64,000 nucleotides of DNA from Candidatus Falkowbacteria bacterium. Lineage in GTDB: Bacteria > Patescibacteriota > Patescibacteriia > CAIXNZ01. Location of the stretch: the NCBI GenBank assembly GCA_963774955.1, contig CAVZGV010000004.1, positions 383,779 through 447,778 of the forward strand, read 5' to 3'. The position numbers were made by a program, and so were the translations under genes. A model generated the notes under the pieces. That model worked only from the letters and a program-made list of their open reading frames with translations, was not told where the DNA came from and searched no databases. Every line of letters begins with the position of its first letter. Within the stretch, counting starts at the first letter, position 1. Positions 1,116-42,557 of this stretch are shown one piece after another.

Positions 1116-4100
1116 ATGAGAACTTCAAAAAACAAATTTAAAATATATCTGGCTGTAGTCTCTCTGGCTGCTATGCTTATAAGTACGGCAGGCGCGTCTG
1201 CTGCCACCAGGATCGGCAGCAATATAAACTCTGCCGGTGATCTGACTGTTGACGGTGCTTTGAAATTTACTTCAGGCGCTGCTAACAATTATGTTTTAGC
1301 CAGTGATGCCAGCGGTAATGCCGCCTGGATTTCAGTGGCCACTCTTTTAGATTCTTCTCATGCCAATGTGACTACTAATGATCTGGATGAAGGCACTCTT
1401 AATTTATATTATGATTCGGCAGATGTTGAGACCAGAATTGATAATCGTAGTGGTATTGTCGGTGGTTTTGCTCCGCTTGATGCAGGGTTAAAGGTTCCAA
1501 GTTCATATTTGCCAAATTTAGTAATTACCAATGTCTATGCAGTTGCGGATATTGCTGCCAGGGACTTATTGACCGTTGAAGAAGGCGATGTGGCTGTGGT
1601 TGCTGATGCCGGTTTGTTAGAAAGCCGTTCTTATATTTATGACGGCACAGGCTGGCTGGAATTGAAAGCTCCGGTTGATTTATATTTAGCCGCCGCAAAT
1701 GATCTTTCAGATTTAGGCAATTTCGCTACTGCCAGAACTAATTTGGGTATTGGGACTACAGATATCCCCGAGTTTAACGGTTTGACTTTAAATAGTCTGA
1801 CAGCTGATTCATTTATTTATTCCGGCACGGGTGGATTACTTACCTCAACTGCTGCTCCTTTAGACGGGGAGTTGCTCATTGGTGTTGCTGGCTCGTCTCC
1901 GGTAGTGGCAACTTTAACAGGTACCACAAATCAGGTAGATGTAACCAATGGCGCAGGCTCCATAACTTTATCAACTCCACAAGATATAGATACTAGTGCA
2001 AGTCCACAATTCACAGGCTTAACTTTAAGCGGTACAACACTTTCAATTAACGGAATCGCTTATGCTTGGCCAGCTGCTGATGGCGCCTTGGGGGATGTTT
2101 TAACTACTGACGGTGCCGGCGCTTTAACCTGGACAACTGTGGCCGGTGCAGGTGAAACAAACACAGCTTCAAATGTTAATGTTGGCGGTCAGAGTTTATT
2201 TAAACAAAAAACAGGGGTAGACTTGGAATTCAGGGGCATTAATGCCGCTTCCAATAAGATAGGTATTGCGCTAGATGACCCGAATAATGAAGTAACAATT
2301 GATGTTAATGAAGCTAATTTAACTTTAGATAATCTCGGCGGAACTTTGAGTGAAACTCACGGTGGTACCAATCTGACAACTTATACTAGCGGCGATATTT
2401 TATATGCTTCGGCCGCAGATACTTTAAGTGCCTTACCAATAGGTGGTACTGATGGTTGGGTTTTAACAGTTAATACTGGTGCTCCGGTTTGGCAGGCTTT
2501 ACCTGGGGCAGGAGCAGAAACAGATCCGGTCTTTACTGGAAGCTTTACAGCCGCCGGTGATTTGTTAGTCGGTACAGGAGCAGGAACATATACTGCCGTT
2601 ACAGACGGTACTTCCGGCCAATTTTTAACTACTAACGGTTCAGGCGCTTTGAGCTGGGCAGCAGAAACAGATCCGGTGTATACAGCGTGGGATAAATCAA
2701 CCGGCATATCAATAACCGAATCACAAATATCAGATTTGCAGGCGTATCTGACATCAGAAACAGATTCTGTCTTTACTGGAAGTTTTACAGCCGCCGGTGA
2801 TTTGTTAGTCGGTACAGGAGCAGGAACATATACTGCCGTTACAGACGGTACTTCCGGCCAATTTTTAACTACTAACGGTTCAGGCGCTTTGAGCTGGGCA
2901 GCAGAAACAGATCCGGTGTATACAGCGTGGGATAAATCAACCGGCATATCAATAACCGAATCACAAATATCAGATTTGCAGGCGTATCTGACATCAGAAA
3001 CAGATTCTGTCTTTACTGGAAGTTTTACAGCCGCCGGTGATTTGTTAGTCGGTACAGGAGCAGGAACATATACTGCCGTTACAGACGGTACTTCCGGCCA
3101 ATTTTTAACTACTAACGGTTCAGGCGCTTTGAGCTGGGCAGCAGAAACAGATCCGGTGTATACAGCGTGGGATAAATCAACCGGCATATCAATAACCGAA
3201 TCACAAATATCAGATTTGCAGGCGTATCTGACATCAGAAACAGATTCTGTCTTTACTGGAAGTTTTACAGCCGCCGGTGATTTGTTAGTCGGTACAGGAG
3301 CAGGAACATATACTGCCGTTACAGACGGTACTTCCGGCCAATTTTTAACTACTAACGGTTCAGGCGCTTTGAGCTGGGCAGCAGAAACAGATCCGGTGTA
3401 TACAGCGTGGGATAAATCAACCGGCATATCAATAACCGAATCACAAATATCAGATTTGCAGGCGTATCTGACATCAGAAACAGATTCTGTCTTTACTGGA
3501 AGCTTTACAGCCGCCGGTGATTTGTTAGTCGGTACAGGAGCAGGAACATATACTGCCGTTACAGACGGTACTTCCGGCCAATTTTTAACTACTAACGGTT
3601 CAGGCGCTTTGAGCTGGGCAGCAGAAACAGATCCGGTGTATACAGCGTGGGATAAATCAACCGGCATATCAATAACCGAATCACAAATATCAGATTTGCA
3701 GGCGTATCTGACATCAGAAACAGATTCTGTCTTTACTGGAAGTTTTACAGCCGCCGGTGATTTGTTAGTCGGTACAGGAGCAGGAACATATACTGCCGTT
3801 ACAGACGGTACTTCCGGCCAATTTTTAACTACTAACGGTTCAGGCGCTTTGAGCTGGGCAGCAGAAACAGATCCGGTGTATACAGTGTGGGACAAATCAA
3901 CCGGCATATCAATAACCGAATCACAAATATCAGATTTGCAGACATATGCTCTAAGTGGAGCAAATGGAGACATTACCAGTTTAACCGGGTTGACTACTGC
4001 TCTTGGTCCGACTTATGGCGGTACTGGTTTAGCTACTTATGCTTTAGGCGATATTTTATATGCTTCAGCAGCTAATACTTTATCAGCCTTATCTTCAGGC

Positions 4101-7100
4101 GGAGCTGGTACATATTTGAAATCAGATGGTGCTGGCGGCTTAACTTGGGCTACTCCGGCTGGTAGCGGTACTATTACTGCTGTTGGTGATATAACCACAG
4201 GAGCCGCGTTTACACCTACAGCAGGCGCAGATGGCAATAATTTGTATTTTGAAGGCACAACCGGAAACGGTTTTGAAGTTAATCTGACAGCAGCAGATCC
4301 GGGATCAGATGTGATAGTGACAATCCCTGCAACAACCGGCACATTATTATTGAATACAAATAATTTATCTGACGTATCAAATACAGGAACAGCCAGGACA
4401 AATTTAGGTTTAGGCACGGGAGACAGCCCGCAATTTACAGGATTAACACTGACAAGCGATGAAACATTAAATGCACAGTCAGATTTACGGTTGGCAGATG
4501 CTGATTCATCAAATTGGGCGGCATTCCAGGCGCCAACGACAATTTCTACAAATTATACCTTGACTTTGCCGGCAGATGACGGGACAGCAGGACAATGTTT
4601 GACAACAAGCGACGGCACAGGGACATTAGCCTGGGCAGCTTGCGGAGCTGGAAGTGGAGCAGATACAGCATTATCAAATCTGGCATCAGTAGCCATTAAT
4701 ACATCATTATTACCGGGTACAACAGAATCAATAGCTTTAGGATCAGATTCATTTAACTGGTTGAATTTATACTTAGGGAATGGCGGAGTAGTTTTTGAAG
4801 GCGCAACAGGGGGAGTGGATACAAATGAGACTACCTTGGTAGTGACAGACCCGACAGCAGACCGGACAATAACCTTACCTAATGCAACAGGCACAGTATT
4901 ATTAAATACAAATAATTTATCGGATGTATCAAATACAGGAACGGCGAGAACAAGTTTAGGGTTGGGCACGGGAGATAGCCCGCAATTTACCGGATTAACA
5001 TTAACAAGCGATGAGACATTAAATGCACAGTCAGATTTACGGTTTGCAGATGCTGATTCATCAAATTGGGCAGCTTTCCAGGCGCCAACGACAATTGCAT
5101 CAAATTATACCTTGACCATGCCGGCAGATGACGGCACAGCGCTCCAGTTTTTACAGACTGACGGAAGCGGCGTTTTATCCTGGGCAACCCCAACAGTTAC
5201 ATCTGTAGCCTTTAGTGGCATAACTAATGGCATAAATACAACAGCCACTATGACGGTCGGAAGCGGAGCAACTTTAGCACCGTCAGGAACTGGTATAATA
5301 ACTGCTACCAGATATACAGGGTCAGGTTCTTCAACTAATGAAGTTGACTTAGGAACAGCAGAGGTAGCCGGTACTTTAACCGTAGTTAAGGGCGGTACGG
5401 GAATAACTGATTTTACTGGGGCGACTGGTAGTTTACCTTATTTTAATTCTGAAACTACTATGGATTTTACAAACGCCGGTACTAATAATAAATTCCTTAA
5501 AGGCGTCACAGGAGGAGCTCCAGCTTTTGCTTCAGTCGATTTGAGCAGTCCGGATGTGACAAGCACTTTGCCTATTGTTAGAGGTGGTACTGCTGCTACT
5601 ACGATAGGATCTGCTGGCAGAGTTGTATATAGTACAGGTACGGCTTATGGCACTTCCAGTGCCACAACCGAATTGGGACATATACTTATTTCAGGTACAA
5701 GTGGCACTGGTGCTCCGTCCTGGTTGGCTCAGGGTGCATCGGGGCAATTACTAGTATCAGGTGGGACAAATGTAGCACCGACTTGGACTTCCTTAGGTAG
5801 TGTACCAACTACGTCAAATAATGATGCTACTTTGCGTTCCAATGGTTCAGCTTGGGTTGAAAATACCTCCGTATTGATAAGTTCAACTGGAGGGATATCA
5901 TCCGCGAACGGTTCAGCCCTAACCATAAATTCTGGAACTACGGGTGATTTGGGGATTGGAACGGATGCAAGTATTGAAAATATAAATATAGGTACTGGTG
6001 GTGCCACTAAAACTATTATTTTTGGCAACAGTACTGGAGCAACCTCAGTTGCTATAAATACTGGTACCGGAGCATTAAATCTGGGAACGAATGCAATCGC
6101 TCATATCACAACATTGGGTTCTATAACAGGTGCCGCTTCAACCATAGTTCAATCAGGAACCGGTGACCTTAAAATTGAGACCCAGGGTACTGGCGGTTTA
6201 AAAATTGGTACTAATGCAGTAGCACAGAATATTACAATCGGCAACGGAACCGGAGCAACATCGCTTGTCTTAGAGGCTGGTACAGGCAATATCGATATTG
6301 GTAGCAATGATATTGCCAGGAGTATAAATATAGGTCAAACCTCTACAGCAGCTCAGGCTATTACCATAGGTAATGGTAATACAGGCACAGCAGTGGATAT
6401 AAAAGTCGGTACAGGAGCCTTAAATTTAGGGTCAAATGCTACAGTTCATACTACCACTTTAGGTTCAAATACTAGCACCTCAACCACTACAGTTCAATCA
6501 GGAACCGGCGGACTTAATTTAACTTCTGCAAGTACAGGTATAATAACCCTAGATTCGGGAACCACTGGTAGGATTGATATAGGAACTAATACTGGTGGCA
6601 AGACTATTAATATCGGGACAGGAGCAGCAGCTAATACCCTTAATATTGGTAATAATACTAGCGGCACAGGTACGTATATCAAAGCTGGAAACACCGGCAT
6701 TAATATATCAACTGGCGGGGCAGGGAATATAGACATATTGACTGACTCAACTGGTACTATGCACATTGATACAGGTACATCAGGTACGATAAATTTTGGA
6801 ACTGGCGATAGCGGAAAAACTATTAATATTGGTACCGGTAATGTCGCCAATACAATTAATATTGGTAATTCATCCTATGCTACTGCAATTCAGTTATATG
6901 GTACTGGCGGTGTAAAAATCGGCTCATCGAGTAGCACTGCGATTTTAAATCATTATTCTGGTACAGCTTCTCTGGATTTTGGCGCCACTGCTGCTAATAC
7001 CTGTGATGCCGCCACCATAACAGTGACTGGCGCTGCTGACGGAGATACTGTTACTCTTGGTGTACCTGCTGCTTTAGCCGGAAGCGATGCTAGTCAGAAT

Positions 7101-7217
7101 TTTTGGGGTTACGTAAGTGCTACAAATACTGTTACTGTAAAAAGATGTAATGTAACTGGTTCACCTTTAAGTGATCCTGCAGCTGCTACAGTACGCGCAG
7201 ATGTTTGGAAACACTAG
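1116..7217 (+). CDS. Giant secreted fibrous repeat protein (2033 aa), tail-fibre/adhesin-like
   Basis: Single uninterrupted ORF with an N-terminal signal peptide (cleavage likely after ASA). G/T/S/A-rich throughout. Recurrent motif G..GQ.LTT.GSGALSWA, six identical 80-aa tandem repeats, and a second diverged duplication (~aa 1070-1160 vs 1260-1345). The C-terminal region has 14-15-aa beta-helix-like repeats (TINIGTG..ANT.NIGN). Confidence 0.85.
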   Translation: MRTSKNKFKIYLAVVSLAAMLISTAGASAATRIGSNINSAGDLTVDGALKFTSGAANNYVLASDASGNAAWISVATLLDSSHANVTTNDLDEGTLNLYYDSADVETRIDNRSGIVGGFAPLDAGLKVPSSYLPNLVITNVYAVADIAARDLLTVEEGDVAVVADAGLLESRSYIYDGTGWLELKAPVDLYLAAANDLSDLGNFATARTNLGIGTTDIPEFNGLTLNSLTADSFIYSGTGGLLTSTAAPLDGELLIGVAGSSPVVATLTGTTNQVDVTNGAGSITLSTPQDIDTSASPQFTGLTLSGTTLSINGIAYAWPAADGALGDVLTTDGAGALTWTTVAGAGETNTASNVNVGGQSLFKQKTGVDLEFRGINAASNKIGIALDDPNNEVTIDVNEANLTLDNLGGTLSETHGGTNLTTYTSGDILYASAADTLSALPIGGTDGWVLTVNTGAPVWQALPGAGAETDPVFTGSFTAAGDLLVGTGAGTYTAVTDGTSGQFLTTNGSGALSWAAETDPVYTAWDKSTGISITESQISDLQAYLTSETDSVFTGSFTAAGDLLVGTGAGTYTAVTDGTSGQFLTTNGSGALSWAAETDPVYTAWDKSTGISITESQISDLQAYLTSETDSVFTGSFTAAGDLLVGTGAGTYTAVTDGTSGQFLTTNGSGALSWAAETDPVYTAWDKSTGISITESQISDLQAYLTSETDSVFTGSFTAAGDLLVGTGAGTYTAVTDGTSGQFLTTNGSGALSWAAETDPVYTAWDKSTGISITESQISDLQAYLTSETDSVFTGSFTAAGDLLVGTGAGTYTAVTDGTSGQFLTTNGSGALSWAAETDPVYTAWDKSTGISITESQISDLQAYLTSETDSVFTGSFTAAGDLLVGTGAGTYTAVTDGTSGQFLTTNGSGALSWAAETDPVYTVWDKSTGISITESQISDLQTYALSGANGDITSLTGLTTALGPTYGGTGLATYALGDILYASAANTLSALSSGGAGTYLKSDGAGGLTWATPAGSGTITAVGDITTGAAFTPTAGADGNNLYFEGTTGNGFEVNLTAADPGSDVIVTIPATTGTLLLNTNNLSDVSNTGTARTNLGLGTGDSPQFTGLTLTSDETLNAQSDLRLADADSSNWAAFQAPTTISTNYTLTLPADDGTAGQCLTTSDGTGTLAWAACGAGSGADTALSNLASVAINTSLLPGTTESIALGSDSFNWLNLYLGNGGVVFEGATGGVDTNETTLVVTDPTADRTITLPNATGTVLLNTNNLSDVSNTGTARTSLGLGTGDSPQFTGLTLTSDETLNAQSDLRFADADSSNWAAFQAPTTIASNYTLTMPADDGTALQFLQTDGSGVLSWATPTVTSVAFSGITNGINTTATMTVGSGATLAPSGTGIITATRYTGSGSSTNEVDLGTAEVAGTLTVVKGGTGITDFTGATGSLPYFNSETTMDFTNAGTNNKFLKGVTGGAPAFASVDLSSPDVTSTLPIVRGGTAATTIGSAGRVVYSTGTAYGTSSATTELGHILISGTSGTGAPSWLAQGASGQLLVSGGTNVAPTWTSLGSVPTTSNNDATLRSNGSAWVENTSVLISSTGGISSANGSALTINSGTTGDLGIGTDASIENINIGTGGATKTIIFGNSTGATSVAINTGTGALNLGTNAIAHITTLGSITGAASTIVQSGTGDLKIETQGTGGLKIGTNAVAQNITIGNGTGATSLVLEAGTGNIDIGSNDIARSINIGQTSTAAQAITIGNGNTGTAVDIKVGTGALNLGSNATVHTTTLGSNTSTSTTTVQSGTGGLNLTSASTGIITLDSGTTGRIDIGTNTGGKTINIGTGAAANTLNIGNNTSGTGTYIKAGNTGINISTGGAGNIDILTDSTGTMHIDTGTSGTINFGTGDSGKTINIGTGNVANTINIGNSSYATAIQLYGTGGVKIGSSSSTAILNHYSGTASLDFGATAANTCDAATITVTGAADGDTVTLGVPAALAGSDASQNFWGYVSATNTVTVKRCNVTGSPLSDPAAATVRADVWKH
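2515..3955 (+). repeat. 6 x 240-bp essentially identical tandem repeats inside the giant gene (each encodes 80 aa, ETDPVFTGSF...QAYLTS)
   Basis: Direct reading shows period 240, with 'gaaacagat(c/t)c(g/t)gtctttactgga' recurring at 2517, 2757, 2997, 3237, 3477 and 3717. Only synonymous or near-synonymous differences are seen in the first and last copies. Confidence 0.9.
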
Positions 7218-10524: not shown

Positions 10525-10599
10525 GGGGGCGTAGCTCAGTGAAAGAGCAGCGGGCAAACATCCCGCAGGTCGTGGGTTCAATTCCCACCGCCCCTACCA
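10525..10599 (+). tRNA. tRNA gene, isotype undetermined (anticodon loop reads CAAACAT, formally anticodon AAC with A33)
   Basis: By-eye cloverleaf: acceptor GGGGGCG/CGCCCCU, D-arm GCUC-AGUGAAA-GAGC, anticodon stem GCGGG/CCCGC, T-arm GUGGG-UUCAAUU-CCCAC, encoded ACCA. The D-loop lacks G18G19 and position 33 is A, both non-canonical. Confidence 0.55.
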
Positions 10600-10626
10600 T
10601 TTTCCGAAGACAGGTTTTCATATCTT

Positions 10627-10685
10627 GTGGGTGCGAATCCGTCTCCGGCGGGCAATTGCGAGGTTCGAACCCTCGTACGCCCACT
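10627..10685 (+). other. tRNA-like fragment: 7-bp acceptor-like pairing (GUGGGUG/CGCCCAC) plus perfect T-arm (CGAGG-UUCGAAC-CCUCG), but no D or anticodon arms
   Basis: Only ~58 nt with a 25-nt middle segment. Could be a degenerate or pseudo-tRNA or a tRNA-like structural RNA. Confidence 0.25.
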
Positions 10686-10703
10686 TAACATGTTTTTTAG
10701 TGT

Positions 10704-10777
10704 CAGGGGATAGCTTAAGTAAAGCGCCAAAACTACCCTTTTGGAGACTGTTGGTTCAAATCCAGCTCCCCTGACCA
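10704..10777 (+). tRNA. tRNA gene, isotype undetermined (anticodon arm cannot form a 5-bp stem with a 7-nt loop)
   Basis: Acceptor CAGGGGA/UCCCCUG, U8A9, T-arm GUUGG-UUCAAAU-CCAGC, encoded ACCA. The anticodon region CCAAA-ACUACCCU-UUUGG gives an 8-nt loop (or a 6-bp stem with a 6-nt loop). The D-loop lacks GG. Confidence 0.5.
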
Positions 10778-14380: not shown

Positions 14381-14809
14381 ATGAACAAAGGTTTTACTTT
14401 AATTGAGTTGATAATTGTTATTTGCATTTTTTTATTGTTAGGCGCAATTTTTTGGCCGATAGGCGCTAATTTTTTCAGCCAAGAATTGGCCAGTAAAGGT
14501 CAGCAACAAATTATCTGGATTTTAAAACAAGCTCGGGCCAATGCCATAAATCAAAAAAATAATTCTGCTTTTGGTGTCTATCTGGAAAAAGGCCAGGCCA
14601 CTTTATTTCAGGGAGATAATTACACCGATAGAATCACAAGCGAGGATATAATTTACACTCTGCCAAAGATTGTAACTATTGTTGATTTAAACGAAATTGT
14701 TTTTGAGCCCAATACCGGTCAAGTTTCTACTCCGGGGACAATTAAACTTAATAGTCCGTCCTTAAGCAGAGAAATTGTGATCAACCAGCTGGGAGTTATT
14801 GATTATTAA
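14381..14809 (+). CDS. Prepilin-type N-terminal cleavage/methylation domain protein (pseudopilin)
   Basis: MNKG|FTLIELIIVICIFLLLG leader plus hydrophobic helix. Confidence 0.75.
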   Translation: MNKGFTLIELIIVICIFLLLGAIFWPIGANFFSQELASKGQQQIIWILKQARANAINQKNNSAFGVYLEKGQATLFQGDNYTDRITSEDIIYTLPKIVTIVDLNEIVFEPNTGQVSTPGTIKLNSPSLSREIVINQLGVIDY

Positions 14810-14816
14810 ATTTAAT

Positions 14817-17657
14817 ATGAATTATCGAAATAAACAAAAGGGTTTTTCTCTGATCGAGATTTTAATCGGGCTTGGTATTTTCGCTGTTATTTTTATTGGA
14901 GTCAGCTACCTGATGATTGATAATTTGCAGGCCAGTTTTGATAATCAGGAAAAAATAAAGGCTGATTTTTTAGTAGCTGAAGGTTTAGAGGCTGTTAAAG
15001 CTATTGCCGGTAATGATTGGGATCAAATCAAGCCAGGAATTTACGGTTTACAATTGAATAATAATCAATGGCAACTGGTAACTGAACCAGAGCAAGTAGT
15101 CCAAATGGCTAAAAAAGGTGAACGGGTTATTACCATCTCCGATGTTTCAGATAATAATATTAAAAAAATTGAAAGCGTTGTTGTTTGGCAGAGTATGACT
15201 GATAAAATAAAATCAAGCAGCGCTGTCACTTTATTAACTAATTGGCGGGGATATGTTTCAATTTGTGCTGACGGTCTTGATAATGATGGTGACGGCTTTG
15301 CTGATTTTCCTGAAGATCCCGGTTGCAGTACTGCTACTGATGAGGACGAATATAATTCTCCGTCAAGTGAGGATTCATTTCAATGTTCTGATGGTGATGA
15401 TAATGATGGTGACGGTAATATAGATTACCCCAATGATCCCGGTTGCAATTCAGCATTTGATAATGACGAGACAGATCCTTTAAATCCGCCTCAATGTTCA
15501 GATAATATAGATAATGACGGTGATGGTACTGTTGATTATCCTGATGATGCGGGTTGCGATTCAGCAGTTGATAATGACGAGACAGATCCTTTAAATCCGC
15601 CTCAATGTTCAGATAATATAGATAATGACGGCGATGGTTTCATTGATTATCCTAAGGATCCTAATTGCGATTCAGCCAGCGATGACGATGAAAGCCAATT
15701 GCCGGATTTGCCGGTTTGTTCCGACGGCCAAGATAATGACGCTGACGGTTTGGTTGATTATCCGGATGATCCAGGTTGCAGTTCTGCAAATGATGATAAT
15801 GAAGTTGACCCCAATAACCCCTCAGATTTACCAGGCTGTTCTGACGGCCAAGATAATGACGCTGATGGCTTCATTGATTATCCTGATGATCCCGGTTGTA
15901 GTTCTGCTGATGATGATAGTGAAGTTGACCCCAATAATCCCTCAGATTTACCAGTCTGTTCCGACGGTTTAGATAATGACGCTGATGGTTTGATTGATTA
16001 CCCGGCTGATCTCGGTTGCGATTCAGCTGATGATAATAATGAAATTAACGCCGAAGTAATGCCTGGCTGTGGTAATGGTATAGTTGAAGAAGATGAAGAA
16101 TGCGATGATGGTAATACCCAAAACAATGATGGCTGTTCCAACCAGTGTGAAACTGAAGCTGCTCCCGGCACAATTTGCGGTAATGGTGTAGTTGAAAATT
16201 CAGAAGAATGTGACAATCAGGCCTTACCTAATGGTTGTAATAAAAAATATGAATCATGTCAGAATAATTGTAAATGCAAAGTGCCAATATGCCACGCGAC
16301 AGCTTCTGAAAAAAATCCTTATGAAATGATTTGGGTAAGCTACAATGCTGTTGATGGTGAGGGTAATAATGATCATTCTCATCACCCCGAAGATATTATC
16401 CCTATTTGGGATATTAATAAAGATGGCAGTCTTGATGATGACGATTGTTTAACCGCCGCCGCCGAAAATTGCATAGGCTTGAATCAGGAGCAAAATTGCC
16501 AAGCAGTTACCCCAGATGTAGTTTTTGACAATGAAGATACCCCGTTATGTCAACTTGAAGAAAGCTCAATTATGGTTACAGGCAAGGTGGTTTTACCGGC
16601 TGGTACAACAGCAAAGTTACAGCTGTCTTATTATATTGTTTGGCCAGAAGATAAAAGGACTGAAATTACTTACGTTAATAAAGGTTTAGTAAATGATGGT
16701 GATACTTTTTCCTTGACAACTCCTTGGCCCGGTGTCAGGCCAGCTGAGATAAAAGTTGAAACTCATATTGGGGCCATGCTTTTAGACCTAATTACAGGCA
16801 ATCCTTTGATGGCCAATGGTTCCAGCTTGGATTATTACTGGTATCCTTGGGTTTGTCCGGCACCGCAAACTGAATGTTCGGATGCGATTGATAATGATGG
16901 TGACGGCAAAATTGATTACCCAGCTGATTCCGGGTGTTATGGAGATGATGATGACGGCGAATTCGGCAGTTGCACTGACAGCGATCATGACGGGTATAAT
17001 ACACCGGGATCAGGCTGCATCCCGACAGTGACCGTGCAAAACAATGGCAATATCAAGGCGCCTAAAGGCACAATGAATTTTAAAGTGATCACTTCTCAAA
17101 TTACTAATGGCGCTGGCGGATCGGAAATTTTTGTCAAAACAGCTTTGAAGATAAACAGCAATTTGACTTGGCTATTTGCGGGACAAGATGTTGATGGCGG
17201 AGAAGAATATAATACTATAATTGCTGATAATACCAATATTGCAGTCAGAGGTCAGGCTTGGTATCAAAATTCTTTTAATAGCCAGTATGATTCTGATACC
17301 AATACCAACTATGTTAAAGTTTTAACTAAAGGCAGTAGTTTGCCCAATGTGCCGCGTTTTGGTTCGCAGCAGCCGTTATCAGAAGTCTTAGCGGCGTTTG
17401 TTGATGCCGACCGTAAAATAGATATTGATGTCAATCAGGTTTTAATAATCTGGGAATTAGGTGTGACAGATTTACGATCTGAAGCCGCTGATTTCCAGGA
17501 TTTAGTGGTATTACTGACTTTTGGTCCGGAAACGTTGCCTTACTGTACCTGCGGACCTTTTGACTGTGATGATACTAACGCTAATATTAATCCAGGTCAG
17601 CCGGAAATTCTAGGCAATAACGTCGATGATAATTGCAACTTTTTTGCCGACGAATAA
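14817..17657 (+). CDS. Pilin-domain fusion protein: prepilin N-terminus + ~9 MopE/TSP3-like metal-binding repeats + Myxococcus-type cysteine-rich repeats; candidate pilus-tip adhesin
   Basis: Leader MNYRNKQKG|FSLIEILIGLGIF. Repeated C(S)DGxDNDGDGxxDYPxDPGC units. CGNGIVEEDEECDDGNTQNNDGCSNQCE motif appears twice. The ATG at 14817 is chosen over the TTG at 14799 used by the ORF track because it gives a canonical prepilin leader. Confidence 0.75.
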   Translation: MNYRNKQKGFSLIEILIGLGIFAVIFIGVSYLMIDNLQASFDNQEKIKADFLVAEGLEAVKAIAGNDWDQIKPGIYGLQLNNNQWQLVTEPEQVVQMAKKGERVITISDVSDNNIKKIESVVVWQSMTDKIKSSSAVTLLTNWRGYVSICADGLDNDGDGFADFPEDPGCSTATDEDEYNSPSSEDSFQCSDGDDNDGDGNIDYPNDPGCNSAFDNDETDPLNPPQCSDNIDNDGDGTVDYPDDAGCDSAVDNDETDPLNPPQCSDNIDNDGDGFIDYPKDPNCDSASDDDESQLPDLPVCSDGQDNDADGLVDYPDDPGCSSANDDNEVDPNNPSDLPGCSDGQDNDADGFIDYPDDPGCSSADDDSEVDPNNPSDLPVCSDGLDNDADGLIDYPADLGCDSADDNNEINAEVMPGCGNGIVEEDEECDDGNTQNNDGCSNQCETEAAPGTICGNGVVENSEECDNQALPNGCNKKYESCQNNCKCKVPICHATASEKNPYEMIWVSYNAVDGEGNNDHSHHPEDIIPIWDINKDGSLDDDDCLTAAAENCIGLNQEQNCQAVTPDVVFDNEDTPLCQLEESSIMVTGKVVLPAGTTAKLQLSYYIVWPEDKRTEITYVNKGLVNDGDTFSLTTPWPGVRPAEIKVETHIGAMLLDLITGNPLMANGSSLDYYWYPWVCPAPQTECSDAIDNDGDGKIDYPADSGCYGDDDDGEFGSCTDSDHDGYNTPGSGCIPTVTVQNNGNIKAPKGTMNFKVITSQITNGAGGSEIFVKTALKINSNLTWLFAGQDVDGGEEYNTIIADNTNIAVRGQAWYQNSFNSQYDSDTNTNYVKVLTKGSSLPNVPRFGSQQPLSEVLAAFVDADRKIDIDVNQVLIIWELGVTDLRSEAADFQDLVVLLTFGPETLPYCTCGPFDCDDTNANINPGQPEILGNNVDDNCNFFADE
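15270..16050 (+). repeat. Tandem ~120-126-bp coding repeats (DNDGDG...DYP.DPGC units) inside the pilin-fusion gene
   Basis: Near-identical stretches recur, e.g. 'ccgcctcaatgttcagataatatagataatgacgg' at ~15486 and ~15597. Confidence 0.7.
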
Positions 17658-21088: not shown

Positions 21089-21170
21089 CGACTTCTCCTT
21101 TTAATTGAAAATCGTAGCCCTGACGATACTTTTCCTATATAATTAGCAAATATTTTTTTAAATGTCAATG

Positions 21171-21231
21171 GTCGGGCTGACGGGACTTGCCCGCCAGCGG
21201 CGGGTCCGCCTTTGGCGGAAACCCACCGATC
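21171..21231 (-). repeat. tRNA-Pro-associated element: twin GC tetraloop hairpins (CCGCC-AAAG-GCGG, CCGCC-GCUG-GCGG) followed by a partial copy of the tRNA-Pro 3' end
   Basis: Read on the minus strand: GTTTCCGCCAAAGGCGGACCCGCCGCTGGCGGGCAAGTCCCGTCAGCCCGACC, where the tRNA 3' end is ..CAAGTCCCGCCAGCCCGACCA. Homologous copies lie at 27283-27335 and 33826-33866. Confidence 0.5.
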
Positions 21232-21235
21232 GTAT

Positions 21236-21311
21236 TGGTCGGGCTGGCGGGACTTGAACCCACGACCTCATCGTCCCGAACGATGCGCGCTACCAACTGC
21301 GCTACAGCCCG
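21236..21311 (-). tRNA. tRNA-Pro (anticodon CGG)
   Basis: Reverse complement folds canonically: CGGGCTG-TA-GCGC-AGTTGGTA-GCGC-G-CATCG-TTCGGGA-CGATG-AGGTC-GTGGG-TTCAAGT-CCCGC-CAGCCCG-ACCA. Confidence 0.85.
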
Positions 21312-21430
21312 TAATGTCTTGTTTGATTGTAATTTTATTTTCCGCAGTTGGTTCGGTTCTTATCACTCGTCTCTTTCCCAACTGCCTGTCCGCCGAAGCT
21401 TTAGCGGAGGCGGGCGCTACAGCCCGTTTA
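21312..21430 (-). repeat. Upstream unit of tRNA-Pro(CGG): ~118-nt structured element ending in a second copy of the tRNA 5'-terminal 13 nt (CGGGCTGTAGCGC at 21418-21430)
   Basis: gcgctacagcccg occurs at 21299-21311 (tRNA 5' end) and again at 21418-21430. It is homologous to the 118-bp units upstream of tRNA-Pro(GGG) (shared gcagttgg..ccaactgc stem and ccgccgaagc hairpin). Confidence 0.4.
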
Positions 21431-21559
21431 GCTATGATGTAAGGTATATTAACAAAGATTCGTATAATTTTCAACCTTGAAATAATAGTTTAAATAATGT
21501 AAAATATAAATAAGCCGCATTTATGATTAATTTCGGCTTTTATATTTAAAATAATCATT

Positions 21560-22409: not shown

Positions 22410-22479
22410 CATTCGTATATTCTTATTATAATTAGTCCCGCATAGCGGGAAGCTGCTTCGCGGCTTAATTCGTATTATT

Positions 22480-24375: not shown

Positions 24376-24411
24376 CGGAGCTAAGCTCCGAAGCTTCGGA
24401 GCTTAGCTCCG
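24376..24411. promoter_or_regulatory. 36-bp perfect palindrome made of two self-palindromic 15-mers around AAGCTT, between rbr and dfx
   Basis: cggagctaagctccg-aagctt-cggagcttagctccg. No T-tract follows on the transcribed (minus) strand, so it is not a classical terminator. It may be an operator or an RNA processing/stability hairpin. Confidence 0.35.
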
Positions 24412-26914: not shown

Positions 26915-27307
26915 TTAGATTTTATAAATATCAGCTTCGGGATTTTGCCTTGAGCGATTTACCAGAAAATAGAGGCCAATTTGAGGAATTTTACTGAGCT
27001 CAGGTACTTCCACGTTATTGACTGTAATGACAAGTTTTGATTTGTGGCACTGGGGACAGGACACATTTTTCCAGATGCGGCCGCTAAGATTAAATTTTCG
27101 GGGGGAATCTTCAAAACCGCAATTTTGGCATTTAAATTTTATATAATATTTTTGAGTTTCTTGATTAGGCATAGATGTTATTTTACACTTTAATTTTAGC
27201 GAAAAATCAAGGAAAAGTCCATCAGGGTCGGCTTTTTCAACCAAAATAAAAACCCCTCGATAAAAGGGATTTTTATTATATTCGGGGCGGAGAGATTTGT
27301 CCGCCAA
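26915..27307 (-). CDS. Hypothetical zinc-ribbon protein (CQNCG...CPQCH); start uncertain (27307 or the internal Met at ~27172)
   Basis: The 5' end of the long ORF overlaps the tRNA-associated hairpin element, so the shorter form may be the real one. Confidence 0.4.
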   Translation of the reverse strand: MADKSLRPEYNKNPFYRGVFILVEKADPDGLFLDFSLKLKCKITSMPNQETQKYYIKFKCQNCGFEDSPRKFNLSGRIWKNVSCPQCHKSKLVITVNNVEVPELSKIPQIGLYFLVNRSRQNPEADIYKI

Positions 27308-27335
27308 AGGCGGATCCGCCGCCGGCGGAAACTTA
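27283..27335 (-). repeat. tRNA-Pro-associated element (second copy): twin GC hairpins plus a partial copy of the tRNA-Pro(GGG) 3' end
   Basis: Read on the minus strand: GTTTCCGCCGGCGGCGGATCCGCCTTTGGCGGACAAATCTCTCCGCCCCG, where the tRNA 3' end is ..CAAATCCTCTCGCCCCG. Confidence 0.5.
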
Positions 27336-27348
27336 TTATTTATAATAT

Positions 27349-27422
27349 CGGGGCGAGAGGATTTGAACCTCCGATCTTCGGACCCCCAGCCCGACGCCTT
27401 AGACCAACTGGGCCACGCCCCG
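27349..27422 (-). tRNA. tRNA-Pro (anticodon GGG)
   Basis: Reverse complement: CGGGGCG-TG-GCCC..GGC-G-TCGGG-CTGGGGG-TCCGA-AGATC-GGAGG-TTCAAAT-CCTCT-CGCCCCG. No CCA is encoded. Confidence 0.8.
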
Positions 27423-27658
27423 TGATATATTCTCAGTTTTGTTATTTGGCGTTGCAGTTGGTCTACAGTCCATAAAATTAATACATCCCTAACTGCTTGC
27501 CTGCCGAAGCATCAAGTGCGAAGGCAGGGGCCACGCCCCGTGATATATTCTCAGTTTTGTTATTTGGCGTTGCAGTTGGTCTACAGTCCATAAAATTAAT
27601 ACATCCCTAACTGCTTGCCTGCCGAAGCATCAAGTGCGTAGGCAGGGGCCACGCCCCG
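27423..27658. repeat. 2 x 118-bp tandem direct repeat immediately 5' of tRNA-Pro(GGG), each unit ending in a copy of the tRNA 5'-terminal 13 nt
   Basis: Units 27423-27540 and 27541-27658 are identical apart from one mismatch (gcgaagg vs gcgtagg). The unit contains the hairpins cctgcc..ggcagg and gcagttgg..ccaactgc. Confidence 0.85.
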
Positions 27659-30120: not shown

Positions 30121-30183
30121 TTTTAAAATTCAATTTAATAAATTTTGGAATTTTTATTTTTACTTTTTAATTTATTTTGATTT

Positions 30184-32269
30184 ATGCCCCGTGAGTATAC
30201 ACTAGAAAAAACAAGAAATATCGGCATTATGGCCCATATTGACGCTGGTAAAACAACGGTTACCGAGCGTGTTTTATTTTATACCGGTAAAAAACATAAA
30301 ATTGGTGAAGTTCATGAAGGGGCTGCTGAAATGGATTGGATGGAACAGGAAAAAGAAAGAGGCATTACCATTACTGCCGCTGCTACTACTTGTTTTTGGA
30401 AAGATCACCGTATTAATATCATTGATACTCCCGGTCACGTTGATTTTACGGTAGAAGTCGAAAGGTCATTGCGCGTTTTAGACGGTGCAGTGGCGGTTTT
30501 TGACGGTTCTCAGGGTGTAGAACCTCAATCAGAAACAGTTTGGCATCAGGCAGCCAAATATGATGTTCCCAGGATTGCTTTTGTAAATAAAATGGATAAA
30601 ATGGGAGCAGATTTTTATATGACGTTTGGATTCAATTGCTGAACGTTTGTCAACTCATGCTGCGGCAGTGCAATTGCCTATCGGTGCTGAAGAAACTTTC
30701 TGTGGTCTGGTTGATTTATTAGATCGTCAAGGCTTATAAATTTGAAGGTGAATATGGCCAAAATGTTATAGAAATATCAATCCCGGAAGATATGAAAGAT
30801 AAGGTAGAAAAATACCGCAAAATTTTACTGGAAAAAGTTGCGGAAAATGATGAGGATATGATGAATAAATATTTAGCCGGACGAAGAATTGGATATTGAT
30901 CAGATTACGTCAGGTAATGCGTAAAGCTACAATATCTAATGATTTTCATCCGGTTTTGTGCGGTTCAGCTTTGAAAAATATCGGTGTACAACGAATGCTT
31001 GATGCGGTGGTATGCTTATTTACCATCACCGCTTGATGTACCTCCGATTATAGGTAAAAATCCTGATACAGGCAATGAGGAAAAAAGAGAAAGCTACTGA
31101 TGAAGCGCCTTTTGCCGCACTTGCCTTTAAATTAGCCACTGATCCTTTTGTCGGTAAATTAGTCTTTTTTCGTGTTTATTCGGGCAGTCTAAAAGCAGGT
31201 TCTTATGTTTTAAATACCAAGACAGGAAATAAAGAAAGAATTGGTCGTATTGTACGCTTGCATGCTAATTCCCGAGAAGATGTTGATGAGGTTTTTTCCG
31301 GAGAAATTGCAGCAGCTATTGGTTTGAAAAATACTGTAACGGGCAATACTTTGTGCGATGAAAAATACCCTGATAATTTTGGAAGAAATTATTTTTCCGG
31401 AACCGGTTATTTCCGTGGCGATTGAACCAAAAACCAAGGCTGACCAGGAAAAAATGGGCATGGCTATGCAGAAATTGGCCGAAGAAGATCCGACTTTTAA
31501 GATTCACACTGATGAGGAAACCTTACAGACTATTATTTCCGGTATGGGCGAATTACATTTGGATATTATTGTTGACCGTATGAAAAGAGAATTTAAAGTT
31601 GAAGCCAATGTCGGTGCGCCTCAGGTTGCTTATAAAGAAACCATCAAAGGTGGCGGCTGAAGGCGAAGGTAAATATATCAAACAGTCAGGTGGTCGTGGT
31701 CAATATGGTCATTGTTGGTTAAAAGTTGAACCGCGTGATCGAGGTGAAGGCTTTGAATTTGTTGATGAAATTAAAGGCGGCGTTATTCCCCGGGAATTTA
31801 TTCCTGCCGATTGAAAAAGGTGTTAAAGAATCTTTAACTAAAGGTATTTTGGCCGGTTATCCGGTTGTTGATATTAAAGGCTACTGTATATGACGGTTCT
31901 TATCATGACGTTGATTCTTCTGAAGTAGCTTTTAAAATTGCCGGTTCTATGGCTTTTTTTGAAGCCGCCAGAAAGGCTAAGCCAATTATCTTGGAACCGA
32001 TTATGAAGATTGAAGTAACTACCCCGGAGCAATTTATGGGTGATGTTATTGGTGATTTGAATTCCAAACGCGCTCAGATTTCTCAAATGACCGAGAAAGT
32101 TAAATTAAAGGTAATTGACGGTTTAGTTCCTCTTTCAGAAATGTTTGGTTATGCCACCTCTTTAAGGTCTTTGACTCAGGGACGTGCAAATTATGCCATG
32201 GAATTTGATCATTATCAGGAAGTTCCATCTAATGTTGCGCAAAAGATTATTGAAGGAAAAAAGAAATAA
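30184..32269 (+). pseudogene. fusA: Elongation factor G with at least 8 frameshifts between ~30620 and ~31870 (N-terminal G domain and C-terminal domains intact)
   Basis: ORF-track pieces 30184-30642, 31075-31425, 31358-31660, 31599-31814 and 31865-32269 are all EF-G in different frames. Manual translation of 30640-31075 gives further EF-G segments ([120 protein letters not shown]), each in a shifted frame. Confidence 0.85.
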
Positions 32270-33825: not shown

Positions 33826-33866
33826 TGCCCCGCAAAGTGGGGTCAGCCTTCGGCGGAAAACTTTTT
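33826..33866 (-). repeat. Third, more degenerate copy of the twin-hairpin element (no adjacent tRNA)
   Basis: Minus strand reads GTTTTCCGCCGAAGGCTGACCCCACTTTGCGGGGCAAATCT, the same architecture as the elements 3' of both tRNA-Pro genes. Confidence 0.4.
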
Positions 33867-39109: not shown

Positions 39110-39246
39110 GGATAATTAATAATAATCCATAAAATACAGATATATGTCGCATGGCGGCATCCCGCGACTGCGGGGTTAATCATAGATAATGCCGAGAAGT
39201 ATTTCATCCGCAAAATCAGTGATTAAATAATCTAGTTTATAATATT

Positions 39247-40177: not shown

Positions 40178-40837
40178 ATGGGACATAAAGTTAATCCAAG
40201 AGCAATTAGAATAAGTATTAATAAGGGTTGGGACTCCAAGTGGTTTTCCCGCCAGAATTTTGGCGCTTTTTTACGTCAGGACGTAGCTATTAGAAAATTT
40301 TTAAAAGCAAAATTAAAAGATGCTGGTGTCGCTAAAATTGAAATTGAACGCTCAGCTGAAAATTTAAATGTTATAATTTCCGCAGTAAAACCCGGGGTGA
40401 TTATTGGCCGCTCTGGTGTTGGTATTGAAGATTTAAAGGCAGCCTTAAAGAAAACTATTTTGAATAAGGAAGTAACCAAGGTACCTGGTAAGATGAATTT
40501 GAATATTAATATAATGGAAGTAGACAAGCCGAATCTTAATGCCCAAATAGTAGTAGATAATATTATTCTTGATTTGGAAAAAAGAATTCCTTTTAGACGT
40601 TCTATGAAGCAGTCCATAGGCAGAGTAATGCGTGCTGGCGCTAAAGGTGTTAAGGTCATGGTCGCTGGACGTTTGAATGGTGCTGAAATTGCCAGACGAG
40701 AAACTTTAACTGAAGGTGAAGTACCGCTACACACTTTACGAGCCGATATTGATTATACACCTGGTTATGCTCAAACGATTTATGGTAAAATCGGGGTCAA
40801 AGTTTGGATTTACAAAGGGGAAGTTTTTAATAAATAA
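40178..40837 (+). CDS. rpsC: 30S ribosomal protein S3
   Basis: [12 protein letters not shown]..., KH domain. Confidence 0.9.
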
Positions 40838-42200: not shown

Positions 42201-42557
42201 ATGAAGAAGAATTATATAACCGCCTATGGCGGAAAAATCAGATCCGGAGACAGAGTCAAGGTCCTAGCCGGTAAGGATAAGGGTAAGAAGGGAAAGGTCT
42301 TACAGGTTTTAGGTGAAAAGAATCGGGCTTCAGTCGAAGGTATCAATTTAATGGTCAAGCATATGCGCCCACGTAAGCAGGGTGAAAAAGGTCAGAAAAT
42401 TGAATTTCCGGCTCCGCTTAATATTTCCAATTTATTATTGATTTGTCCTAAATGCAATAGATCAATTAGAATTAAATATAAGTTTTTAGAAAAAACCGGA
42501 GATAAAAAAGCTAAAAAAGTTAGAATTTGCGGTAAATGTAAGGAATTATTAGATTAA
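42201..42557 (+). CDS. rplX: 50S ribosomal protein L24 with C-terminal C4 zinc-ribbon extension
   Basis: KOW-containing L24 core plus CPKCNRS...CGKCKEL. Confidence 0.85.
   Translation: MKKNYITAYGGKIRSGDRVKVLAGKDKGKKGKVLQVLGEKNRASVEGINLMVKHMRPRKQGEKGQKIEFPAPLNISNLLLICPKCNRSIRIKYKFLEKTGDKKAKKVRICGKCKELLD

Follow-up and report, generated by a model that had tools for sequence, protein, structure and literature searches.

Two tRNA-Pro genes in a 64,000-nt stretch of a Candidatus Falkowbacteria genome (contig CAVZGV010000004.1, positions 383,779 to 447,778; the whole stretch is here called the window) raise the question of why a tRNA gene should be accompanied by displaced copies of its own two ends and by a short GC-rich twin hairpin, termed E below. 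The original prediction placed both genes in like flanks. The genes themselves are confirmed by ARAGORN and the Rfam tRNA model, which identify intact genes on the minus strand for tRNA-Pro(CGG) at 21236-21311 (68.1 bits, CCA encoded; locus 1) and for tRNA-Pro(GGG) at 27348-27422, not from 27349 (58.1 bits; locus 2). The intact tRNA is nested in a hairpin-interrupted, broken copy and, in relatives, a GIY-YIG open reading frame (ORF) lies between the broken and the intact copy. On balance, the cassette appears to be the ORF-less relic of a selfish DNA system targeting tRNA genes, the nuclease activity, target and mobility of which are predicted.

Intact tRNA-Pro genes and their broken copies

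At locus 1, a second, partial tRNA copy begins 2 nt past the intact tRNA-Pro(CGG) and spans approximately positions 39-76 of the tRNA (the tRNA-derived pieces of both loci are on the minus strand). Its first part is a 14-nt remnant at 21220-21233, ACGATCGGTGGGTT, which, on comparison with the stretch ACGATGAGGTCGTGGGTT of the intact tRNA-Pro(CGG), corresponds to the 3' strand of the anticodon stem, the variable loop, the 5' strand of the T-stem and TT, with small deletions. The last part is a displaced 3' piece at 21169-21189, CAAGTCCCGTCAGCCCGACCA, which runs from T-loop C56 to CCA and is identical to the tRNA 3' end at 20 of 21 nt; its first 17 nt match at 16, beginning 21 nt from the end of the tRNA. 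Between the two is a 30-bp E copy (21190-21219; minus strand TCCGCC-AAA-GGCGGA / CCCGCC-GCT-GGCGGG), recognised by pattern and by covariance model. With ACGATCGGTGGGTT on its left and CAAGTCCCGTCAGCCCGACCA on its right, E therefore sits between T55 and C56, inside the T-loop of the partial second copy.

The upstream flank holds the other end of the tRNA. A displaced 5' piece (21414-21426, CGGGCTGTAGCGC), an exact copy of tRNA positions 1-13, is followed by a different hairpin, E' (21390-21413; plus strand CCGCC-GAA-GC-TTTA-GC-GGA-GGCGG), and then, within 21378-21389, by the 5-nt ACAGG and the D-loop remainder CAGTTGG (21378-21384). From this order it follows that the partial 5' copy, comprising positions 1-21, has its D-loop interrupted by E'. 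Relatives of this E' are found at L209, at L176/L177 and at locus 2 of the window, and L225 shows the same '...GGCGG-AC(A/G)GG-CAGTTGG' junction (L-numbers denote loci from genome and metagenome collections or, for L244-L247, from a protein-side look-up). An AT-rich spacer of 66 nt (21312-21377, minus strand) separates the D-loop remainder from the intact gene and includes CCAACTGC (21344-21351), which repeats the D-loop segment of the same tRNA in inverted orientation; such inverted copies are present in every upstream unit (CCAACTGCG at locus 1, TAGACCAACTG at locus 2). The spacer occupies the place held by the GIY-YIG ORF in L244 and L209, and is itself too short for an ORF remnant.

Locus 2 is built alike. 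Its E copy (27300-27329) is canonical, with a GGATCC centre, and is preceded on the minus strand by a T-loop-derived GTT. The displaced 3' piece of tRNA-Pro(GGG) (27282-27299, CAAATCTCTCCGCCCCGA) is without CCA, as is its tRNA, with 13 of its first 17 nt matching the tRNA 3' end, beginning 18 nt from the end. The 3' part of the broken copy comprises positions 53-73 at this locus, and E again interrupts it exactly between T55 and C56. Upstream, the predicted unit of ~118 nt is in fact present as a tandem duplicate. The proximal copy (27423-27540, minus strand) comprises a 5' piece (27528-27540), an E' variant (27501-27527; plus strand CTGCC-GAA-GCA-TCAAG-TGC-GAA-GGCAG), a decayed D-loop CAGTTAGG and the inverted own-tRNA D-loop TAGACCAACTG, and the distal copy (27541-27658, minus strand; 5' piece 27646-27658, E' 27619-27645) is 99% identical to it (repeat family D7).

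Most of the predicted anatomy was therefore sound. The 3'-end copies are real, the stems gcagttgg/ccaactgc and ccgccgaagc... are present, and the 13-nt 5'-end copies are exact, although at the positions given here and not at 21418-21430, 27527-27539 and 27644-27656. A twin hairpin does lie downstream of both genes, but its loops are of 3 nt, not 4, and the predicted pattern with NNNN loops matches nothing; the window form is TCCGCC-NNN-GGCGG-A-(T/C)CCGCC-NNN-GGCGG-(A/G), and the corrected 30-nt pattern has 2 sites in the window versus 0.00 expected (100 shuffles). A third, tRNA-less twin hairpin, predicted at 33826-33866, is also present, but diverged and confined to 33828-33857, in the spacer before a Phd/YefM-like ORF; it scores 37.3 bits with a covariance model in which this copy was itself included, and its minus-strand flanks, GTT...CAAATCT, repeat the few T-loop bases that flank E at locus 2. 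By arithmetic, an exact 13-nt copy within 250 nt has a chance expectation of ~4e-6, and the repeated tRNA ends are therefore not due to chance.

At locus 1, a promoter-like site (TTGAAA-17-TAATAT with TG, a consensus match only; 21446-21474, minus strand) precedes the outer 5' piece by ~20 nt, and no comparable site was found directly before the intact tRNA. At locus 2, an intrinsic-terminator-like hairpin with a T run (27253-27268, minus strand) lies 13 nt past the displaced 3' piece; no terminator-like site was found at locus 1. With the one site outside the 5' piece and the other outside the 3' piece, the outer pieces look like the original gene ends, and the intact tRNA looks to be nested between the two ends of the broken copy. 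On the tRNA strand, the terminator-like site of locus 2 follows the 3' fragment and not E, which does not itself qualify as an intrinsic terminator.

Several other origins can be set aside. Rfam, searched at the gathering threshold and permissively (E-value up to 5), returned tRNAs only and no other family. A tRNA intron (group I, or bulge-helix-bulge at 37/38) is ruled out by the lack of any Rfam match but tRNA and by insertions that lie in the D- and T-loops of incomplete copies beside an intact tRNA. A retro-copy of a mature tRNA is ruled out by fragments that mirror the presence or absence of gene-encoded CCA, and a long target-site duplication as the source of the tRNA fragments by the tRNA-specific sequence that flanks E on both sides.

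The twin hairpin in other genomes

The original prediction proposed to judge the element by its copies in other genomes, by compensatory changes and by empty and filled sites in relatives. Two scans, one of genomes (one per species, queried with the first 20 nt of E, TTTCCGCCNNNGGCGGAYCC) and one of metagenomes (E followed by a T-loop-like CRANNC), each returned at least 120 loci, and the family comprises more than 240 loci across both. The consensus of E is TCCGCC-nnA-GGCGGA-TCCGCC-Tnn-GGCGGA, 30 nt in two 15-nt hairpin units, forming a near-palindrome around GGATCC; the flanks have a T-rich and A-rich consensus, and a GTAG head is absent. By our own tally, ~37 of the first 80 titled genome-scan records are from Patescibacteria/Candidate Phyla Radiation (CPR) and ~21 from Omnitrophota, Kiritimatiellia, Planctomycetota, Lentisphaerota or Verrucomicrobiota. 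Nearly every genome-scan hit runs on into a second hairpin, although the query did not require one, and in 91 of 132 hits its stem is a perfect 5 bp at canonical spacing; 74 of the 91 stems are CCGCC/GGCGG, and the others include compensated CCACC/GGTGG, CCCCC/GGGGG and CCTCC/GGAGG. In a 67-row alignment of E, double-sided changes were seen in 6 of 12 pairs, five of them in hairpin 2, whose closing pair is U-A in 49 rows and C-G in 15. Only rows with 5/6 pairs or more had been admitted to the alignment, which biases the percentage paired and leaves the covariation unbiased. No Rfam family corresponds to E. E is a dispersed structured insertion element that is specific neither to tRNA-Pro nor to the window genome.

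Many copies reside in protein genes. Forty-nine of 139 E matches lie within long ORFs, nearly all in the frame F-SAxGGSAxGG-K, and the recognisable hosts are UvrB, Mfd/RecG-like proteins, Ctp, Fmt and ribosomal protein S3 (RpsC). Being 30 nt long, E never shifts the frame. In a related Patescibacteria metagenome-assembled genome (MAG; L050, 3600-3860), the 3' end of a filled rpsC encodes …KGEVF-SAEGGSARGG-EGH*, and the window rpsC (40178-40837) is empty, ending …KGEVFNK* at the equivalent position. Rickettsia palindromic elements (RPE), reportedly described by Ogata et al. in 2000, are selfish palindromes that lie in-frame in protein genes, where they are tolerated as an extra peptide, and in RNA genes too. 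E behaves in a like manner: it is palindromic, occurs in-frame within conserved protein genes and, in rpsC, is present in one homologue and missing from another. However, RPE are of 100-150 bp and occur in Rickettsia only, whereas E is of 30 bp, occurs in several phyla and encodes SAxGGSAxGG; judged by this difference in size, sequence homology of E to RPE is implausible.

Mitochondrial GC clusters, double-hairpin elements and repetitive hairpin-forming elements are found in fungi and sponges. These are short, GC-rich, two-hairpin elements of AT-rich genomes that occur in coding regions as well as in spacers and structural RNA genes, often beside endonuclease ORFs and partial gene duplications, all of which resembles E. 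They differ in being organellar and in having no sequence similarity to E, which is a fixed 30-bp, frame-neutral and cross-phylum element. A term of the double-hairpin type is indexed for, among others, PMC2800124 and PMC4478555.

The broken-copy layout of the window recurs at other tRNAs. The genome and metagenome sets contain 21 cases in which an intact tRNA is followed by a short spacer, by E and by a copy of the tRNA's own 3' end that begins at C56, 18-21 nt from the end; these involve Pro (10), Ile, Leu, Ala, Arg, Thr and Met tRNAs, and Val cases were found additionally. The original prediction of a compact, recurrent element family holds, and no published description of the element was found in the literature searched. 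The supposed tie to tRNA-Pro does not hold, since the layout extends overall to Pro, Ile, Leu, Ala, Arg, Thr, Val, Met, Gly, Lys and Ser and about one third of E copies lie in protein genes; Pro is merely over-represented (10 of the 21 clear cases, and one Pro-linked GIY-YIG lineage). Of 168 tRNAs whose flanks were long enough, 14 are preceded by a copy of their own 5' end and 22 are followed by one of their own 3' end; seven have both, versus ~1.8 expected by arithmetic if the two were independent. Transfer RNA sequence is present on both sides of E at locus 1 of the window and at L068, L095, L126, L203 and L156. L225, a tRNA-Pro(CGG) locus of another organism, corresponds to locus 1 piece for piece, with another D-loop hairpin, and at L095 (Ile) and L126 (Pro TGG) the intact tRNA belongs to an inner cassette that splits a near-complete outer tRNA. 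L203 and L107 have the E-bearing unit in tandem arrays, as at locus 2. The flanks vary in presence, as the tRNA-Pro loci L068, L166 and L196 have the 3' part without the 5' unit.

Variants and neighbours of E were also observed. At L153 (~1970-2450, shown strand), tRNA-Ser(GCT) copies carry a different, 40-85 nt T-loop insertion at TTCG|AATCC, and E is therefore not the sole T-loop occupant in pseudo-copies. Kiritimatiellia-like contigs (L003, L012, L100, L121, L130, L140, L237) have E within a longer repeat, ...ataggaat-E-caatcc..., which suggests composite elements built around E. Within the window, a solo half unit, CCGCC-TAT-GGCGG followed by AAAAA, is present at 42220-42232 (marginal covariance-model match, E-value 0.09), and further intergenic twin hairpins lie at 24376-24411, 22436-22464 and 39146-39174; among these is a perfect 36-nt palindrome, CGGAGCTAAGCTCCGAAG|CTTCGGAGCTTAGCTCCG, with an AAGCTT centre and an E-like build on other stems. 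The region 10525-10777 holds two odd tRNAs, a tRNA-Val(AAC) whose D-loop lacks GG and whose anticodon loop reads CAAACAU, and a tRNA of undetermined anticodon. Between these two, at 10628-10690, is a tRNA-like minihelix (acceptor stem plus T-arm), the middle of which is a single E-like hairpin, CCGTC-TCC-GGCGG.

GIY-YIG ORFs and a proposed mechanism

In an all-against-all ORF comparison of 120 genome loci, a GIY-YIG family of ~90 amino acids (aa) was the second most recurrent, and four of its five members adjoin tRNAs with E. PF01541 ORFs are present in 31 of the 120 metagenome loci listed (39 hits, E-value about 1e-15), with an E unit no more than 80 nt upstream in 28 of the 39 hits and an intact same-strand tRNA no more than 250 nt downstream in 31. 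The usual order is the 5' part of a tRNA up to the E-bearing loop, E, the ORF and the intact tRNA (L161, L158), and the mirror order is the intact tRNA, the ORF and the E-bearing 3' part (L094, L205). At L209, a tRNA-Pro(CGG) pseudo-copy of full length precedes the ORF and the intact tRNA; it carries three hairpin insertions, among them an E' nearly identical to that of the window and, in the T-loop, E. When the contigs of L209 ORF homologues were looked up from the protein side, unselected for E, the close homologues (L244-L247) again lay at hairpin-disrupted tRNA-Pro loci. In L244, a Howlettbacteria MAG, a 5' piece with a D-loop twin hairpin precedes the ORF; next come an intact tRNA-Pro(TGG) and then a 3' piece interrupted by a hairpin. 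In L247, E and the 3' part of tRNA-Pro come after the ORF. The window loci are decayed, ORF-less examples of this widespread family.

The nuclease clusters track tRNA type, with Ser clades and a Pro/Val clade, in a sampling biased to Ser. With a profile of 18 ORFs, the best relatives in the PDB are UPF0213 (1zg2, 1ywl) and SLX1, I-TevI is marginal (E-value 0.035), and TIGR01453 falls below its cut-off. It may be speculated from the SLX1-like affinity that stem-loop or cruciform DNA is recognised. Viral contigs contain only three E copies and the nuclease is without a phage match, and a phage origin is therefore unlikely.

SegB, a GIY-YIG enzyme of the T-even phages that is encoded in a tRNA cluster, has a 27-bp site including a conserved T-stem-loop motif, cleaves within tRNA genes and homes (PMC2330249), and through its nuclease activity segments that contain tRNAs are amplified in tandem in a recombination-dependent manner (PMC13096335). 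The present system is similar in that, in relatives, a GIY-YIG gene lies among tRNA genes, and amplification by SegB resembles the partial and whole tRNA duplications described here. Nevertheless, SegB is free-standing and belongs to phages T4/T6, whereas the present system is chromosomal and occurs in CPR and other bacteria. Furthermore, the ORFs here are of 80-100 aa, fall in the UPF0213/SLX1 branch and accompany hairpin insertions in a broken copy, and the window loci are without the ORF.

The favoured course of events is modelled on SegB. A putative nuclease would break tRNA-gene DNA at loop or cruciform positions, and recombinational repair would lead to segmental, partial duplication, as it does with the phage enzyme. 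Only arrangements that keep one intact tRNA would survive; the redundant copy would then gather hairpin insertions and deletions, and the nuclease ORF would since have been lost from the window genome. Transcription of the intact tRNAs probably starts at the old promoter and runs through a leader (locus 1, ~115 nt; locus 2, ~236 nt), from which RNase P would free the tRNA.

A number of observations weigh against this reading. There is no GIY-YIG ORF in the 64-kb window, and the link to a nuclease therefore rests on other genomes; in the unselected genome set, the ORF is present in only 6 of the 120 loci listed, and only 3 of 117 E copies follow a tRNA. The CRANNC selection of the metagenome scan inflates tRNA contexts, and those of tRNA-Ser especially. 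The ORFs, at 80-100 aa, hold the catalytic domain only; full-length Seg and I-TevI enzymes have a separate DNA-binding domain. The GIY-YIG ORFs do not match phage Seg proteins in sequence, a tblastn search in phages gave no match for them, and UPF0213 proteins may serve a housekeeping function. No general target-site duplication of E was found, flanking direct repeats exceeding controls in ~6 of 76 copies, mostly of low complexity, and in UvrB native residues are replaced by the E-encoded peptide, with no clean 10-residue addition. In addition, perfect inverted repeats surround the intact inner tRNA at L126 (13 bp, 1250-1400), L095 (18 bp, minus strand, ~2179-2255) and L085 (11 bp, 3270-3370); these are locus-specific, would lengthen the acceptor stem in the precursor and receive no explanation from the proposed events.

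More tentatively, and as a possibility that we would not press, E and the mini GIY-YIG ORF may together represent a class of bacterial mobile element that is as yet undescribed. A structure-specific, SLX1-like nuclease cassette would land in cloverleaf-forming tRNA genes, spare its host because an intact tRNA, left in place or brought along, is nested within the broken one, and ride the tRNA promoter, with E as a non-autonomous, frame-neutral satellite spread over Patescibacteria, Omnitrophota and phyla of the Planctomycetota-Verrucomicrobiota-Chlamydiota (PVC) group and adding 10-codon Ser/Ala/Gly loops to essential proteins. A 2026 paper on group I introns in tRNA genes of Patescibacteria mentions neither GIY-YIG nor hairpins, palindromes, pseudogenes or duplications. 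If the selfish reading is correct, the system would be a chromosomal, multi-phylum counterpart of phage SegB, suggesting that tiny GIY-YIG proteins of the UPF0213/SLX1 type, which are very common and of unknown role, can be selfish parasites of tRNA genes. The nested tRNA-within-tRNA would offer a testable model for the survival of an essential single-copy gene under repeated nuclease attack. E is also a natural, frame-neutral insertion tolerated by essential proteins (UvrB, S3, Mfd), which bears on CPR alignments, phylogenies and structure prediction, and broken, hairpin-riddled tRNA copies and leaders of at least 115 nt affect tRNA annotation and completeness estimates in reduced genomes.

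Alternative explanations and other features of the window

Plain local tandem duplication of tRNA-Pro with decaying flanks, the hairpins being unrelated palindromes of the repetitive extragenic palindromic (REP) or REPIN type, mobilised for example by a REP-associated tyrosine transposase (RAYT) in neutral DNA, is an unlikely explanation that nonetheless accounts for part of the data. Partial tandem duplications are evident in the doubled 118-nt unit, the L203 array and L107, and most E copies lie away from tRNAs. Like REPs, bacterial interspersed mosaic elements (BIME) and REPINs, E is a dispersed, many-copy, inverted pair of short hairpin palindromes. However, REPs are extragenic and lineage-specific, whereas E is found inside ORFs and is nearly identical across phyla; the GTAG head is missing, and no recurrent family resembling RAYT or Y1 transposases was present near E among the loci scanned. 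Moreover, this explanation does not account for the location of E at one T-loop nucleotide (T55|C56) in 21 independent cases and 8 tRNA types, for the co-occurrence of 5' and 3' pieces above expectation or for the GIY-YIG ORFs sandwiched between broken and intact copies.

A functional RNA, in which the 5' copy in the leader would pair with the 3' copy in the trailer as a processing stem around pre-tRNA-Pro and the GC hairpins would serve as stabilisers, terminators or RNase sites, is improbable. Such a long-range stem was part of the original prediction, and folding does predict it: in the fold of 21165-21432 (minus strand), the outer CGGGCUG pairs with CAGCCCG around the intact cloverleaf (minimum free energy -106.8 kcal/mol, z = -3.4). 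The promoter-like site upstream of the outer piece suggests that the flanks are probably co-transcribed, and the 11-18-bp inverted repeats around the inner tRNA in L126, L095 and L085 are in keeping with pairing of this kind. Nevertheless, the outer pieces pair because they are copies of the acceptor halves, and the inherited complementarity is not independent evidence. The absence of the 5' unit from the related tRNA-Pro loci L068, L166 and L196 speaks against an indispensable role, locus 2 carries a fresh duplication of the unit, E occurs in ORFs too and is without a U tract, and no Rfam family was matched.

That a tyrosine-integrase element entered the 3' end of each tRNA-Pro, restored it and was then mostly deleted, leaving the tRNA as attL and the 3' fragment as attR, is highly improbable: the direct repeat does run from the T-loop to the exact tRNA 3' end, with CCA in or out as in the gene, and T-loop crossover classes of integrases are reportedly known from Williams in 2002, but no integrase or recombinase was found by Pfam scan among 20 neighbouring ORFs (18.6-35.5 kb) and no recombinase among the recurrent families near E (120 loci listed), tRNA sequence lies to the left of E (locus 1, L068, L095, L126), placing E within the displaced copy and not at an att border, 5' fragments exist as well, the DNA between the repeats is tiny (~45-65 nt), the same 30-bp E is found inside protein genes, and E is nearly absent from viral contigs. 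The likeness to tRNA-gene integrative elements lies in a broken tRNA gene whose displaced part is replaced and whose 3' end is left as a direct repeat; the differences are that here there is no integrase, the insert is of tens to a few hundred nt, the 5' end is replaced too and a hairpin lies inside the displaced copy. What survives of the predicted integration scar is that the repeated tRNA ends trace back to an insertion or rearrangement of DNA in a tRNA gene; classical site-specific integration is not supported, with no integrase nearby and tRNA sequence on both sides of the hairpin.

Other features of the window lie in protein genes. The EF-G gene (fusA; 30181-32266), between intact rpsL/rpsG and tuf, is spread over approximately ten overlapping reading-frame segments, and its Pfam domains are distributed over ORFs 30184-30642, 31075-31425 and 31865-32269; either the gene is a pseudogene with many frameshifts or the sequence has a run of indel errors here. 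An ORF of 2033 aa (1116-7217) contains six 240-nt coding repeats of 99% identity at 2515-4014, and Asp/Gly-rich coding repeats of 111/120 nt are present at 15252-16960 in ORF 14799-17657.

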